DNA of 64,000 bases from Escherichia coli (GTDB taxonomy: Bacteria; Pseudomonadota; Gammaproteobacteria; Enterobacterales; Enterobacteriaceae). The position numbers and the translations under genes are program-made. Positions 26,108 to 56,011 of the stretch are shown here, piece by piece. The stretch is from assembly GCF_003790525.1 (NCBI RefSeq), contig NZ_CP033635.1, one strand, 5' to 3'. Below the pieces are notes generated by a model, which did no database searches, was not told the origin of the DNA, and saw nothing but the letters and a program-made list of their open reading frames with translations. Positions within the stretch are counted from its first letter, which is position 1. Every line of letters starts with the position of its first letter.

Positions 26108-27433
26108 ATGAGCAAAGTAACTCCCCGGCCGAAAATCGGCTTTGTTTCCCTTGGCTGTCCGAAAAACCTTGTCGATTCAGAGCGTATTCTCACCGAACTA
26201 CGCACTGAAGGTTATGACGTGGTACCGAGCTATGACGATGCGGACATGGTGATCGTCAACACCTGCGGCTTTATTGACAGCGCGGTACAAGAATCACTGG
26301 AAGCCATTGGTGAAGCGTTGAATGAAAACGGCAAGGTAATTGTGACCGGTTGTCTGGGGGCAAAAGAAGATCAGATCCGCGAAGTCCACCCGAAAGTGCT
26401 GGAAATCACCGGGCCTCATAGCTATGAGCAGGTTCTGGAGCACGTTCATCACTACGTGCCAAAACCGAAACACAACCCATTCCTGAGCCTGGTGCCAGAA
26501 CAAGGTGTGAAACTGACACCGCGTCATTATGCCTATCTGAAAATTTCTGAAGGCTGTAATCACCGCTGCACCTTCTGCATTATTCCGTCTATGCGCGGCG
26601 ACCTGGTGAGCCGTCCGATTGGCGAAGTGTTAAGTGAAGCGAAACGTCTGGTTGATGCGGGCGTTAAAGAGATTCTGGTGATCTCGCAGGATACTTCCGC
26701 GTATGGCGTCGATGTTAAACATCGTACTGGCTTCCACAACGGCGAGCCCGTAAAAACCAGCATGGTCAGCCTGTGCGAACAGTTATCGAAACTGGGGATC
26801 TGGACACGTCTGCACTACGTTTACCCTTATCCGCATGTGGACGACGTCATCCCACTGATGGCAGAAGGCAAAATCCTGCCGTATCTGGACATTCCGTTGC
26901 AGCACGCCAGCCCGCGCATTCTCAAACTGATGAAGCGTCCGGGTTCTGTAGATCGCCAACTGGCGCGCATCAAACAGTGGCGCGAAATCTGCCCGGAACT
27001 GACCCTACGCTCAACCTTTATTGTCGGCTTCCCTGGCGAGACGGAAGAAGATTTCCAGATGCTACTCGACTTCCTGAAAGAAGCACGTCTGGATCGCGTT
27101 GGCTGCTTTAAATACAGCCCGGTTGAAGGTGCAGACGCCAATGCCCTGCCTGACCAGGTTCCGGAAGAAGTGAAAGAAGAACGCTGGAACCGTTTCATGC
27201 AGTTGCAGCAGCAGATTTCCGCCGAGCGCCTGCAAGAGAAAGTGGGCCGTGAAATTCTGGTGATTATCGACGAAGTGGACGAAGAAGGTGCGATTGGTCG
27301 CAGCATGGCAGATGCACCGGAAATCGACGGCGCGGTTTATCTCAATGGTGAAACCAACGTTAAGCCGGGTGATATCCTGCGTGTGAAAGTCGAGCACGCC
27401 GATGAGTACGATTTGTGGGGTAGCCGGGTTTAA
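26108..27433 (+). CDS. rimO: Ribosomal protein S12 methylthiotransferase (radical SAM)
   Basis: CxxxCxxC radical-SAM motif (CNHRCTFC), MTTase N-terminal and TRAM domains; 441 aa. Confidence 0.92.
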
Positions 27434-27617
27434 TTAATCTTAAGGCAGATCTAACAAGGATATTGTTCTTCGATCTGCCTCTGCTACCCTTCCCGATGTC
27501 CTACCCTTACGCACAAAATCCCCTGACGCATAAATCGAGAAAAATGTATCGTACTCGAGGCAACTCTCACTTTTTCACACCAAATTAAAGTTTTGATCGC
27601 AATTACTTGAAATAAGC

Positions 27618-27643
27618 GTAATGGTTACTATAGTAAACATTAC
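27618..27643. promoter_or_regulatory. Near-perfect inverted repeat upstream of the toxin gene; candidate operator
   Basis: gtaatggttacta / tagtaaacattac, arms match 12 of 13; lies just upstream of the SD (aagga) and ATG at 27659. Confidence 0.5.
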
Positions 27644-27658
27644 CACAAGGATGGATGT

Positions 27659-28045
27659 ATGGGTGTGTATAAGGCAAGACGATTCAGCCAAAGCACGAAA
27701 AAACTTGGTATTCACGATAAAGTTCTCATGGCTGCCGCTGAAGAAGTGATGCAGGGCATATGGGAGGCTGATTTAGGTAGCGGTGTCATCAAAAAACGTT
27801 TACCCCTCCAACAAGGAAAGAGTGGTGGAGCCAGAACAATTATCTTTTTTAAATCAGCAAATCATGTGTTTTTTTATGATGGTTGGTCCAAGAGTGGTCT
27901 AAGCAGTAAAGGAACCAAAGAAATCGAAGATGATGAACTGGCGGCCTACAAAAAAATGGCAAATGCATTTCTGGCCTTTAGCAATAAGCAAATAGAGGAT
28001 TTGATCGAAACTGGCTTTTTGATTGAGGTGAAAAATGAGCGATAA
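27659..28045 (+). CDS. Type II toxin, HigB-2 / RelE-like family
   Basis: 128 aa; GKSGGARTIIFF motif resembling the GxGGxRxI core of HigB-2-type toxins; toxin-first order with an 11-nt overlap onto an HTH gene; absent from this position in K-12. Confidence 0.7.
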   Translation: MGVYKARRFSQSTKKLGIHDKVLMAAAEEVMQGIWEADLGSGVIKKRLPLQQGKSGGARTIIFFKSANHVFFYDGWSKSGLSSKGTKEIEDDELAAYKKMANAFLAFSNKQIEDLIETGFLIEVKNER

Positions 28046-28364
28046 ATTACAAATGATGCTGGAAGATGCAAAGGAACTGAATGCACTGGGCCTGATGTCT
28101 GATAGTGAAGTTGATGCCATTGCCGTCATGGTCAAAGCTCGTGAAGTCAGCGCCCGTATAGCCAAAGTCAAATCAATGACGGGTGAAGAGATCAAAGCCA
28201 TCCGCACCCGATACGGCATGTCACAATCCGTGCTGGCACATACAATGGGAATGTCAAAAGAAAGTGTCTCGAAATGGGAACGTAATGAAATAAAACCGAG
28301 CGGCCCGGCATTACGTATTTTGAATACATTGGCAATAAAAGGGCCGGAAGTTTTTGCAAAGTAA
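28035..28364 (+). CDS. HTH (XRE-type) antitoxin, HigA-2-like
   Basis: 109 aa; C-terminal HTH (GMSQSVLAHTMGMSKESVSKWE) after an N-terminal extension; translationally coupled to the toxin. Confidence 0.7.
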   Translation: MSDKLQMMLEDAKELNALGLMSDSEVDAIAVMVKAREVSARIAKVKSMTGEEIKAIRTRYGMSQSVLAHTMGMSKESVSKWERNEIKPSGPALRILNTLAIKGPEVFAK

Positions 28365-28433
28365 AATGTTTGCAAATGATTTACCACATTCATTAGTACC
28401 CCTTGATTAAGGGGTACTAACACTATTCTAATT

Positions 28434-29762
28434 CTACTGCCAGCTAATCTGCGCCCTGCCGTTTTTCTTACTCTTATACAGCCGCTCATCCGCCAGCATT
28501 TTCAAGCGTTCGACGGTAGGACATTCATTTGAATGCGCTACACCGATACTGGTACTTAAATTAATGCTTCCCACCTGGAAATGAACGATTTCTTTTAGAA
28601 TCGATAGCAACTCTTCCAGCGTTCCACCCGTATAAATCACCGCAAATTCGTCACCACCGAAGCGGTAGACTTTACCTTTATCTACCGGGATCTGTGATTT
28701 AAGGATTTTCACCACTTTCATCAACACTTCATCGCCCAGCAAATGACCGAAGGTGTCGTTGATGTTTTTGAATTTATCGACATCAAAAAGACACAGATAG
28801 CCGCCTTTTTCCGGCAGGGCTTTTAAATCTTCGTCAAAGGATTTTCTGCCCATTGCTTTGGTCAGGTCATCCAGGAACGCCGAGTTATACAGACTGTAGA
28901 GTTTTTTGACATCGGCAGCCGAAAAGAAAAGCCCGCCATCCAGTACGCGTTCAAAATGGTTATTAATGATGGCTTCTTTCTCCACAACACCACGATTAAT
29001 CACTCTGCGTACCAGATAGAGGCAACTGGCACCCGATATCACTGCCACCAATGCGGCAAAGAAAATAATCAATGTACAGACCCGCAAATAAACATCTTTT
29101 TTATACGCAAATACGTACAATCCGGTCGGCAAATAGGCGAAGTGCTCCATCGCTTCCGAAACGGTGAAGATGGCGTTTTTAGCATTATATTCATCACCGG
29201 TCACCGGTTTACCGTTCTTAAACAGAGAGAACATCAGGTTCTCGCTGTCCATCGCCAGCGATTTTGACAGTAAAGAAAAACGTTCCAGACCAAGCAAAAA
29301 TATCAGACTGCGATTGTGAGTTACCGGATAGAGGTAATAGACGAAGGTTTTACCGTCAAAAGAGATAAACCCTGTATTTTTGACATGTCGATACTTCACA
29401 ACCTGCATAATATCTGCACAATAATTTTTCTCGAACTCCTTTACCTGAATACATTCGTCACTGGAAATCAGATAAGGACCGACATCGTACAAATAAGAGG
29501 GTGAAAGCGAGTCGGCGTAAGCTGTGCGTAAGCCAACCAACAGCTGTTCCTCCGTAGGATTTAGCGTGTTGATCAGATCAATTGCCACACTACGCCGATA
29601 TTCAGCAATATTTGCCACCGCAAAAGCAGTATCAATAACGGACTGTTTCAGGCCATACACCCGTTCCTTTACCATTTGAGTGTAGATCCCGCAGGCAACT
29701 GCTGAAATCATGATAAAAATCAGCAGACTGACTGTAAGTACGAATTTATTGATTCTGGACAT
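28434..29762 (-). CDS. dgcI: Diguanylate cyclase (GGDEF domain), membrane-anchored
   Basis: 442 aa; RFGGDEF active-site motif; synteny (yliF). Confidence 0.88.
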
Positions 29763-34146: not shown

Positions 34147-35685
34147 TTATTGCAAATCTGCGTCTTCAAAGCTGAAGCCGGTGTCTGGCATGATCCAAAA
34201 ACCGGTCAGGTTTTTACTGTGTGCCGACACCAGTTTTTCTACCACCAGCGGGATCCACGGCGACTCTTGCCAGATGATATCCTGCGCCGCCTTATATAAA
34301 CGGGTCTTTTCCGCCGGATCATTAGTTTTTAGTGCCTGAGCCAGGAAGTCATCCACCTGTTTATTGCTGTAAAACGCGGTATTAAACAGCGTTGGTGGCC
34401 AGTTTTGCGAGGCAAACAGCGGCGATAGTGCCCAGTCAGCTTCGCCGGTTGAAGCCGACCAGCCAGTGTAGAACATCCGCACGCCGCTCTCTTTTTGCCC
34501 TTTACCTTCGACTTCTGCCGCCCGCTGTCCGGCATCCATCGCAGTCACCTGGGCTTTAATCCCGACCTGCGCTAACTGCTGCTGGGTAAATTGCAGCACT
34601 TTCTGCGCGGTGCTGTGGTTATGTGACGACCACAGCGTGGTACTGAAACCGTTGGGATATCCCGCCTCTTTCAGTAATTCGCGCGCTTTCACTGGATCGT
34701 AAGGCCACGGTTTATAACTTTGCGCATAGGCGATACTCGGCGGTACCACACCAGTAGCTGGCGTTGCATAGCCCGCGAAGGCCACTTTCACCAGCGCCGG
34801 GCGGTTAATGGCGTAATTCAGCGCCTCACGGACCTTCGGGTTATCGAACGGCTTTTGCGTCACGTTCATACTGATATAACGCTGCATAATTGACGGACTG
34901 GCCATCAACTCGATATTTTTGTTTTTCTCCAGCAATGCGGCCTGCTCGTAAGGAATGGGGAAAGCAAACTGCGCTTCACCGGTTTGTAGCATTGCCGCGC
35001 GGGTGTTGTTATCCGCAACCGGACGCCAGGTTATGCTGTCCAGTTTGGGCAATCCTGGCTGCCAGTAACCCGCGAATTTTTTCACCTTCACAAAATCGGT
35101 CTGATTCCAGGTATCCAGTTCATACGGCCCGGTTCCCACCGGATGAAAACCAATATCCTTGCCATATTTTTCCAGCGCTGCCGGCGAAATCATCGCGGTC
35201 GCCGGATGGGCAAGAATATTAATAAACGCTGAGAACGGCTGTTTGAGGGTAATCTTTACCGTTGTTGGATCGATCGCTTCCGTTTTGGCAATATTCTTAT
35301 ACAGGTTGTAGCGTTTAAGATGATTCGCCGGATCGCTGGCCCGGTCCAGATTCGCTTTTACCGCCGCTGCGTTGAAGTCGGTTCCATCCTGGAATTTAAT
35401 TCCTTCCCGCAGTTTCACGGTGTAAGTAAGGCCGTCATCGGAAACGGTATAACTCTCCGCCAGCACGTTTTTCAGTTTCATCTCTTTATCCAGACCGAAC
35501 AGCCCCTGGTAAAACGATTTCGCTACGGCCTGAGATAACGTGTCATTCGCGTCATATGGATCGAGCGTGGTGAAGTTCGATCCTACCGCCACCACCACAT
35601 CTTTGGCAGCGAATGCACAAGATGCCATCAACGCTGTCGCAATGCCCAGCGCCACTAACCCACTACGGTGTACAGCTCTTGCCAT
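34147..35685 (-). CDS. gsiB: Glutathione-binding periplasmic protein
   Basis: Start refined to [20 protein letters not shown] (signal peptide; 512 aa); the 89-codon upstream extension in the ORF track is not credited. Confidence 0.88.
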
Positions 35686-54646: not shown

Positions 54647-54998
54647 AACCACCTCAAATGTGATTCAAATAAGTCCTAAGTTTTAAATATATCAAAAATT
54701 AATGGGAAACTCTTCGCGATTTATGATGTCTAACGGGCCATTTCATGTAACAGAACGTTTCCATACACCGCTATCCATCTAAATTTAAATCACTTTTTCA
54801 GAGAACTGCGTAAGTATTACGCATGTTTTCCCTGTCATTCATCCAGATTATTCCTAATCACCAGACTAATGATTCCATCAATCCTGGCGCATTTTAGTCA
54901 AAACGGGGGAAAATTTTTTCAACAAATGCTCAACCAGCATTGGGTATATCCAGTACACTCCACGCTTTACTTAGGTTTAGATATTTGTGGGAGAAAGG

Positions 54999-55886
54999 AT
55001 GCCTGGTTCATTACGTAAAATGCCGGTCTGGTTACCAATAGTCATATTGCTCGTTGCCATGGCGTCTATTCAGGGTGGAGCCTCGTTAGCTAAGTCACTT
55101 TTTCCTCTGGTGGGCGCACCGGGGGTCACTGCGCTGCGTCTGGCATTAGGCACGCTGATCCTCATCGCGTTCTTTAAGCCATGGCGACTGCGCTTTGCCA
55201 AAGAGCAGCGGTTACTGCTGTTGTTTTACGGCGTTTCGCTGGGGGGGATGAATTATCTTTTTTATCTTTCTATTCAGACGGTACCGCTGGGTATTGCGGT
55301 GGCGCTGGAGTTCACCGGACCACTGGCGGTGGCGCTGTTCTCTTCTCGTCGCCCGGTAGATTTCGTCTGGGTTGTTCTGGCGGTTCTTGGTCTGTGGTTC
55401 CTGCTACCGCTGGGGCAAGACGTTTCCCATGTCGATTTAACCGGCTGTGCGCTGGCTCTGGGGGCCGGGGCTTGTTGGGCTATTTACATTTTAAGTGGGC
55501 AACGCGCAGGAGCGGAACATGGCCCTGCGACGGTGGCAATTGGTTCGTTGATTGCAGCGTTAATTTTCGTGCCAATTGGAGTGCTTCAGGCTGGTGAAGC
55601 ACTCTGGCACTGGTCGGTTATTCCATTGGGTCTGGCGGTCGCTATTCTCTCGACCGCTCTGCCTTATTCGCTGGAAATGATTGCCCTCACCCGTTTGCCA
55701 ACACGCACATTTGGTACGCTAATGAGCATGGAACCTGCGCTGGCTGCCGTTTCCGGGATGATTTTCCTCGGAGAAACACTGACACCCATACAGCTGCTGG
55801 CGCTCGGCGCTATCATCGCCGCTTCAATGGGTTCTACGCTGACAGTACGCAAAGAGAGCAAAATAAAAGAATTAGACATAAATTAA
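54999..55886 (+). CDS. rhtA: Threonine/homoserine exporter (DMT superfamily)
   Basis: Start refined to MPGSLRKMPVWL (295 aa); 10-TM EamA-type. Confidence 0.88.
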   Translation: MPGSLRKMPVWLPIVILLVAMASIQGGASLAKSLFPLVGAPGVTALRLALGTLILIAFFKPWRLRFAKEQRLLLLFYGVSLGGMNYLFYLSIQTVPLGIAVALEFTGPLAVALFSSRRPVDFVWVVLAVLGLWFLLPLGQDVSHVDLTGCALALGAGACWAIYILSGQRAGAEHGPATVAIGSLIAALIFVPIGVLQAGEALWHWSVIPLGLAVAILSTALPYSLEMIALTRLPTRTFGTLMSMEPALAAVSGMIFLGETLTPIQLLALGAIIAASMGSTLTVRKESKIKELDIN

Positions 55887-56011
55887 ATTTACATTTCTGC
55901 ATGGTTATGCATAACCATGCAGATTTTCTCGCTACTTTTCCTCTACACCGTCTTTATATATCGAATTATGCAAAAGCATATTTATTCCGAAAATTCCTGG
56001 CGAGCAAATAA

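Follow-up and report, generated by a model that had tools for sequence, protein, structure and literature searches.

What does the palindrome directly upstream of a toxin-antitoxin operon of Escherichia coli do, and which protein reads it? The window (the whole stretch of DNA that was analysed, 64 kb) contains such an element, wrapped around a predicted promoter and followed by a toxin gene and an antitoxin gene. Autoregulatory palindromes over the -10 hexamer are the norm for type II modules. The conservation of this element among related cassettes, together with the behaviour of homologous systems, argues strongly that it serves a HigB2/HigA2-type type II toxin-antitoxin operon as its autoregulatory operator, and we consider this reading very probable. 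The features on which the analysis rests are collected in Table 1.

Table 1. Features of the toxin-antitoxin island, with positions in the window and the grounds for each assignment
Feature	Position	Strand	Grounds
Island left part, upstream of promoter	27439..27606	+	Absent from K-12; not conserved in orthologous cassettes
-35 hexamer TTGAAA	27607..27612	+	Promoter scan; TTG conserved in orthologs
26-bp palindrome (both units and central TATA)	27618..27643	.	Arm complementarity, chance test
Putative operator unit 1, GTAA-TGG-TTAC	27618..27628	.	Abuts -10; ortholog conservation
-10 hexamer TATAGT	27629..27634	+	Promoter scan; palindrome centre
Putative operator unit 2, GTAA-ACA-TTAC	27633..27643	.	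Covers -10 3' end and expected start at about 27641
Shine-Dalgarno AAGGA	27647..27651	+	7 nt before ATG; read from sequence
Toxin gene, 128 aa, PF06296 "RelE" (HigB2 family)	27659..28045	+	Pfam, RefSeq, family profile
Antitoxin gene, 109 aa, N-terminal helices and C-terminal XRE-type HTH	28035..28364	+	HTH_3, HigA-2 match, AF2
Hairpin, candidate terminator, island right edge	28393..28420	.	Perfect 12-bp stem, gatt loop

The palindrome consists of GTAATGGTTACTA followed without a gap by TAGTAAACATTAC, two arms of 13 nt that are complementary at 12 of 13 positions; the lone mismatch opposes G27624 and A27637. From its end it is 3 nt to the Shine-Dalgarno sequence (SD) and 15 nt to the toxin ATG. 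The window has three gapless 13+13 palindromes with one mismatch or none, where 100 dinucleotide shuffles gave 0.1 on average, and when the 225-nt intergenic region was shuffled, 3 of 20,000 shuffles yielded such a palindrome. A previous sequence-only reading had described an inverted repeat of this length and arm match just 5' of the toxin SD and start codon, and both the repeat and its position are borne out by the sequence and the shuffle statistics. Within the palindrome, two 11-bp GTAA-N3-TTAC units are joined by a self-complementary TATA and lie 15 bp apart (about 1.4 helical turns). Two such units in tandem give a 26-bp palindrome automatically, and 10 of the 13 complementary pairs come from this substructure; the remaining 2 pairs are contributed by the unit spacers, TGG and ACA, which match at 2 of 3 positions. 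Between 27439 and 28434, which would include an internal antitoxin promoter, no further unit with at most one mismatch was found besides these two.

A promoter scan of the intergenic region returned only one good sigma-70-like site on the + strand, TTGAAA-16-TATAGT, with 10 of 12 consensus positions. Its TATAGT is the centre of the palindrome and is overlapped by an alternative -10, TACTAT, at 27626-27631. Unit 1 adjoins the -10 on its upstream side and unit 2 overlaps its 3' end. Judged from the position of the -10, transcription is expected to start at about 27641, inside the right arm, so that the leader would be about 18 nt long.

The two genes are read in the order toxin, antitoxin, both on the + strand and overlapping by 11 nt, in identical agreement with the RefSeq annotation. 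The toxin, named RelE/ParE family toxin in RefSeq, matches Pfam PF06296 over its full length (E = 6.9e-33; 113.8 bits, with a cut-off of 27), a family whose members have been called HigB-2 (2025 review, PMC11980606). A pairwise phmmer search of the toxin against PDB sequences gave no match at E ≤ 1, and a profile built from 50 family toxins had the HigB-2 of Vibrio cholerae as its sole significant match in the PDB (E = 2e-6). K45, K46, R47, R59, and K78 are invariant across the toxin family. The active-site residues of HigB-2 are K49, R51, R64, Y82, and K84 (PMC10098735); K45, R47, R59, and K78 of the toxin appear to align with the Lys and Arg residues that we take to be K49, R51, R64, and K84, and in our reading of the alignment the position of Tyr82 is occupied by Trp, Phe, or Tyr in the toxin family.

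The antitoxin matches HTH_3 (E = 1.9e-9) and, with phmmer, HigA-2 (E = 5.7e-4, residues 47-106 against 38-96). Its AlphaFold2 model, computed with 48 homologs, has a pLDDT of 91, and the top Foldseek matches are the HigA2 structures 5jaa and 5j9i (rmsd of 1.1-1.3 Å over 60-61 residues), followed by MqsA (3gn5, and 3fmy at 1.7 Å). The modelled fold is thus HigA2-like and resembles the C-terminal part of MqsA. In HigB2/HigA2-type modules the N-terminal region of the antitoxin is intrinsically disordered and folds on the toxin. Residues 1-46 of the E. coli antitoxin lie outside the HTH; the model places two confident helices at 2-17 and 23-41 and is uninformative on disorder in the free state. 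Together, the PF06296/HigB-2 and HigA2 matches identify the module as HigB2/HigA2-type and not as a canonical HigBA pair.

Two other identities were considered for the antitoxin. Membership of the MqsA family was rejected because the matches to its models remained below threshold (TIGR03830, 47.1 bits with a cut-off of 61.8; PF15731, 20.6 with a cut-off of 30) and were confined to the C-terminal part (TIGR03830 positions 51-122, E = 1.8e-12), and because the zinc-binding domain is missing: the 109-aa protein has no cysteine, and hence nothing of the CxxC...CxxC pattern of MqsA. Identity with canonical HigA was rejected as well, since there was no HigA-family model among the antitoxin's 18 NCBIfam hits and the HigA of Proteus vulgaris (6chv) ranked only 31st in the fold search, at an rmsd of 5.2 Å. 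Of the earlier proposal of a HigA-type operator, the operator part is supported: each computational test bearing on it was favourable (the location on the -10, the conservation in 24 cassettes, and the covariation with the recognition helix), and homologs described below offer precedent. The part on canonical HigA fails.

The two ORFs are flanked by rimO (26108-27433) on the left and by dgcI (28434-29762), which converges on them, on the right. In E. coli K-12 the flanking genes are separated by a spacer of just 46 nt that contains a hairpin, and homology to K-12 ends after 27438 and restarts at about 28435, which defines the pair as an accessory island of about 1 kb. The island is found in 1128-1135 of 5426 complete E. 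coli genomes (about 21%), including O157:H7, and 1113 of the carriers share a promoter region of at least 99% identity. The region is 100% identical to that of E. coli SMS-3-5.

Conservation was assessed in relatives of the toxin, of which more than 80 loci were collected by tblastn against plasmids and by a pattern scan of one genome per species. The close subfamily comprises 24 distinct upstream regions or cassettes, with toxins 43-74% identical, carried on plasmids as well as at a variety of chromosomal sites in Kluyvera, Siccibacter, Enterobacter, Pantoea, Pectobacterium, Proteus, Providencia, Moellerella, Photorhabdus, Xenorhabdus, and others. In these 24 orthologs the element lies 13-23 nt (mostly 15-18) from the start codon, a TTG is kept where the -35 would be, about 12-14 nt ahead of the palindrome, and a GAGG-like SD block is conserved. 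The sequence farther upstream and downstream of the cassette is unrelated between loci; at such divergence, the conservation of the element reflects selection on the element itself.

This conservation falls into blocks, which read GTAa (positions 1-4), TTAC TATA GTAA (8-19), and tTAC (23-26). Most of these positions carry 1.2-2.0 bits in the 24 orthologs, with lower information at positions 4, 16, and 23 (0.65-0.96 bit); the spacers (5-7 and 20-22) carry 0.1-0.6 bit and the flanks, outside the -35 TTG and the SD, 0-0.9 bit. In unit 1, positions 1-3 and 8-11 reach 1.3-2.0 bits, position 4 has 0.8, and the spacer 0.1-0.3; in unit 2, positions 16-19 and 24-26 have about 1.0-2.0 bits and position 23 has 0.65. 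An independent MAFFT alignment recovered the identical conserved block. The palindrome centre, which is the -10, is invariant or nearly so in all orthologs, and since a -10 alone would account for the conservation of these central 9-10 bp, the outer blocks are the only independent evidence. Sigma-70 contacts and promoter function do not explain the conservation of the outer GTA and TAC, which are not part of the -10 hexamer. With the blocks conserved while the spacers drift, the palindrome resolves into two 11-bp units flanking the -10. The functional unit is probably this 11-bp 4-N3-4 palindrome, present twice; the single 26-bp site proposed in the sequence-only reading thus survives as a palindrome and probably not as the unit that is recognised.

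In the distant subfamilies there was only one 4-N3-4 unit, which matched the left unit of the E. coli element in register and directly abutted a TAnnnT hexamer. This unit is GCAC-N3-GTGC in the subfamily with a 119-aa toxin, TCAC/CCAC-N3-GTGA/GTGG in several proteobacterial metagenome-assembled genomes (MAGs), and GTAC/ATAC-N3-GTAC/GTAT in Pantoea. A perfect GNAN-N3-NTNC unit was present in 32 of the 78 distinct upstream regions of PF06296 toxins, against 1.05 in shuffles (maximum, 5) and 1 in an equally long coding-sequence control, and was almost always followed directly by the TAnnnT hexamer. A palindrome scan that scores long arms passes over the operators of distant homologs (L005 to L007), which are revealed by the criterion of a 4-N3-4 unit next to the -10. 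The antitoxins differ in parallel: the recognition helix xM[ST]xxSV[SQ]KWE pairs with half-sites ending in TTAC, and NTSxST[VI]xKWE with xCAC/GTGx half-sites. The half-site class therefore appears to track the antitoxin recognition helix, as cognate pairs should, with the proviso that this covariation is confounded by common descent, operator and antitoxin being inherited together. The inner TTAC-N4-GTAA pair was also considered as the family-type site and set aside, because an alignment anchored on the -10 registers GTAA-N3-TTAC with GCAC-N3-GTGC and GTAC-N3-GTAC.

Some loci carry additional palindromes. In Pectobacterium (L041 to L047), a longer one with arms of about 18 nt, CCCGATATTACTATGGTA-GTTA-TTACCATAGTAATATCGGG, lies about 20-60 nt upstream of the toxin start and is made of TTAC/GTAA 4-mers with a central GTAG-N3-TTAC unit. 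In Pantoea (L005, L035, L037, L038, and L040), a second conserved palindrome, GGAC-N7-GTCC, is found in the leader, between the -10 and the SD. Several homologous toxin genes (L036, L054, L068, L069, L061, and others) are, in the sequences extracted, truncated or devoid of an adjacent antitoxin ORF (59-103 aa), which suggests that such loci are decayed cassettes; the putative operator is retained in some, such as L054 and L069.

The closest experimental precedent is higBA2 of V. cholerae (PDB 5J9I, 5JAA, and 8A0W/8A0X), where the toxin gene also comes first, the antitoxin has an N-terminal toxin-binding part (predicted for E. coli) and a C-terminal XRE HTH, and a palindromic site lies between the -35 and the start (here predicted) and covers the -10. 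HigA2 protects 24 bp that include TGTACGC-N5-GCGTACA, from after the -35 across the -10, and represses its own promoter in vivo in a reporter assay, for which dimerisation is required (PMC11006873). An operator over the -10 is thus already known for the HigBA2 family in Vibrio, and is an expected, ordinary feature of the module. The two systems differ in their details: the HigA2 operator is a single 7-N5-7 repeat, whereas the E. coli element has two GTAA-N3-TTAC units, and HigB-2 and the E. coli toxin are too diverged for a pairwise sequence match. The base-contacting residues of HigA2 are R68, E71, N72, and R77 (PMC11006873), and the corresponding residues of the E. coli antitoxin, E76, S79, K80, and E85, differ at all four positions. 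This fits a different operator sequence and, combined with the 7-N5-7 geometry, means that the mode of recognition seen in the crystal structure does not transfer directly.

A second precedent is ToxP/AntitoxP (CBUA0028/CBUA0027) of the Coxiella burnetii plasmid QpH1, whose toxin belongs to the same family and is 35-37% identical to that of the window (tblastn). AntitoxP and the toxin-antitoxin complex bind the promoter PtoxP in EMSA, and PtoxP is active only without the plasmid (PMC10098735). We read PtoxP as TTGACA-17-TATAGT with TCAC-TTA-GTGA abutting the -10; this assignment is our own, the site being unmapped in that study. The palindrome so placed has the position of unit 1 in the E. coli operon and follows the family rule. 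Unlike the E. coli pair, the Coxiella system would have a single unit with a CAC/GTG half-site and the recognition helix NTSVSTVKQWE.

E. coli MqsA (PDB 3GN5 and 3O9X) offers a further comparison, with the toxin gene first and an HTH fold at an rmsd of 1.7 Å. MqsA binds AACCT-N3-AGGTT, and the mqsRA promoter carries two such palindromes (PMC4894380), so that short N3-spaced palindromes, two per promoter, are common to both; this is a resemblance of sites and not evidence of membership. MqsA has an N-terminal zinc-binding domain that the 109-aa antitoxin lacks, its half-site sequence is different, and its toxin MqsR is of PF15723 and not PF06296. The half-site centres of a 4-N3-4 unit are about 7 bp apart, a spacing that fits MqsA and that for a HigA2-type dimer is a proposal by analogy. 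Canonical HigA (Rts1/P. vulgaris and E. coli K-12) is likewise encoded after its toxin, has an XRE-type HTH, and recognises palindromes in the promoter of its own operon, as predicted here; the toxins of these pairs are of PF05015/PF09907 in place of PF06296, and the antitoxin family differs too. The toxin-binding part of canonical HigA is not known to be an N-terminal extension of the type predicted for the 109-aa antitoxin.

How the element would be read is the point on which an alternative deserves most attention. All 26 bp could form one composite operator, read across the central dyad by a single antitoxin dimer or by a dimer of dimers, with contacts to the inner TTAC/GTAA pair, to the outer GTA/TAC pair, or to the two together. 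The single operator of V. cholerae HigA2, with its 24-bp footprint for one dimer, speaks for such a site, as do two orthologs (L003 and L004) in which symmetry across the dyad is better than symmetry within the units, and the inner 4-mers, whose conservation exceeds that of position 4 in the outer ones. Against this, the spacers of the orthologs show no constraint across the dyad, with 24 of 72 positions matching, no better than chance (0.27 expected from composition). The right unit has decayed in three of the 24 orthologs (L015, L023, and L031) with the left unit retained, and the left unit is lost in none, while the distant subfamilies all have their single 4-N3-4 unit at the position of the left one. 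A composite operator is therefore a possibility that we consider somewhat unlikely, and two antitoxin dimers on two units is the arrangement that we favour from the sequence comparison.

The remaining explanations do without the antitoxin. Conservation might reflect promoter function only, with the operon unregulated or regulated elsewhere, and indeed the most conserved core, TACTATAGT, holds two overlapping -10 hexamers. Yet the outer GTA (positions 1-3) and TAC (24-26), at 1.2-2 bits and mutually complementary, sit in the spacer and around +1 to +3, positions at which sigma-70 does not demand particular bases; distant subfamilies exchange GTAA/TTAC for GCAC/GTGC in step with the antitoxin helix while the -10 is unchanged; and homologous antitoxins have been shown by experiment to bind their own promoters, which makes this explanation very unlikely. 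It is more improbable still that the palindrome acts as RNA, either as a leader hairpin affecting translation or stability or as a terminator of rimO read-through. A 9-bp interrupted stem can be drawn (6 + 3 pairs, with a 2×2 internal loop and a 4-nt loop), but the fold is weak (-7.6 kcal/mol, z-score of -0.76, with 41 of 200 shuffles folding as well), no T-run follows the palindrome, and what is conserved is the primary sequence of the 4-mers, the spacers not being compensatory. Moreover, with the -10 at the palindrome centre, transcripts from this promoter would contain only part of the right arm. The weak fold, the missing T-run, and the central -10 led us to reject this reading. An equally remote idea is that some other protein acts here, for instance a recombinase at an island integration site, or a host regulator. 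The mobility of the cassette, which occupies many genomic contexts, would suit this idea, as would the further GTAA-N3-TTAC unit between ompX and rhtA. The distance to the toxin start is nevertheless fixed (mostly 15-18 nt), the palindrome is internal to the cassette, with about 180 nt between it and the island edge, most loci have no recombinase travelling with the cassette, and the half-site covaries with the cassette's own HTH protein.

With the palindrome read as an autoregulatory operator, the antitoxin would presumably dimerise through its C-terminal XRE-type HTH, as HigA2 does, and bind both units, alone and in complex with the toxin. Bound antitoxin would exclude RNA polymerase from the -10 and the start region, resulting in negative autoregulation, and loss of the antitoxin would free the promoter so that the operon is expressed again. 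Binding by the antitoxin, its stoichiometry, the part that the toxin plays in it, and the point at which transcription starts are what we infer for the E. coli pair, of which we found no study in the literature on the PF06296 family, the two RefSeq proteins, and the rimO/dgcI locus. What the analysis adds is modest: the two-unit architecture and a family-wide rule of a 4-N3-4 palindrome abutting the -10. It completes the predicted anatomy (promoter, operator, toxin, and antitoxin) of an uncharacterised accessory operon present in about one-fifth of complete E. coli genomes and gives the PF06296/HigBA2 family a testable rule, in which the half-site of that palindrome follows the antitoxin recognition helix. 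For hundreds of homologs, operator sites and specificity determinants can be predicted from this rule, which also points to the bases worth mutating; the understanding of type II toxin-antitoxin autoregulation is unchanged. A more speculative idea, which we regard as quite unlikely, is that the Enterobacterales branch of HigBA2 duplicated an ancestral single 11-bp operator into two units that bracket the -10, bound by two dimers on different faces of the DNA and possibly bridged by the toxin. If true, the duplicated operator would allow cooperative control dependent on the toxin ratio, which is absent from the single-operator V. cholerae system.

Exact GTAA-N3-TTAC matches occur at two other places in the window, at 35249 (inside a 601-aa ORF) and at 54810 (between ompX and rhtA), neither of them tied to the island. 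The latter is part of a perfect 7-N3-7 palindrome, TGCGTAA-GTA-TTACGCA (TGCGTAAGTATTACGCA), at 54807-54823, in the intergenic sequence annotated as yliM; this palindrome includes the GTAA-N3-TTAC unit of the putative operator and has GCGTAA in common with the left edge of the latter. The region of this palindrome was found in 5422 of 5426 E. coli genomes, with or without the island, and is thus a core-genome feature independent of it. It may be the site of another regulator, or a cross-target of the antitoxin in island-carrying strains. A weaker corollary of the duplication idea would be that the antitoxin also binds there and acts, like MqsA, as a regulator of host genes in the approximately 21% of strains that carry the island. 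A perfect gapless 26-bp palindrome at 55897-55922, 11 nt after the stop of a 299-aa rhtA-like ORF (54987-55886), is probably a terminator or a protein-binding site.

The edges of the island show further repeats. Past the antitoxin stop, where the antitoxin and dgcI genes converge, the hairpin TTAGTACCCCTT-gatt-AAGGGGTACTAA stands in place of the GC-rich rimO-dgcI hairpin of K-12; it has no T-run, is not conserved in orthologous cassettes, and is a candidate terminator. At the right junction of the island (28434-28436), the dgcI stop TAA of K-12 (L001, 1581-1583) is changed to TAG. On the left edge, directly after the rimO stop, an inverted repeat at 27443-27480 (AGGCAGATCTAACAA and TTCTTCGATCTGCCT, 87% complementary, with an 8-nt loop) may substitute for the rimO terminator.

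Two database records that contain the cassette are probably misassigned. L008 (JAIJJM010000872.1), a 1198-bp contig of a "Collinsella sp." MAG, has a toxin gene with about 200 nt of upstream sequence 100% identical to the window and encodes the identical 109-aa antitoxin; the contig almost certainly comes from E. coli and was binned into the actinobacterial MAG by mistake. H21 (CP088669.1), a 730-kb E. coli "plasmid" that encodes an identical toxin, is likely to be a chromosomal fragment or a mis-assembly.
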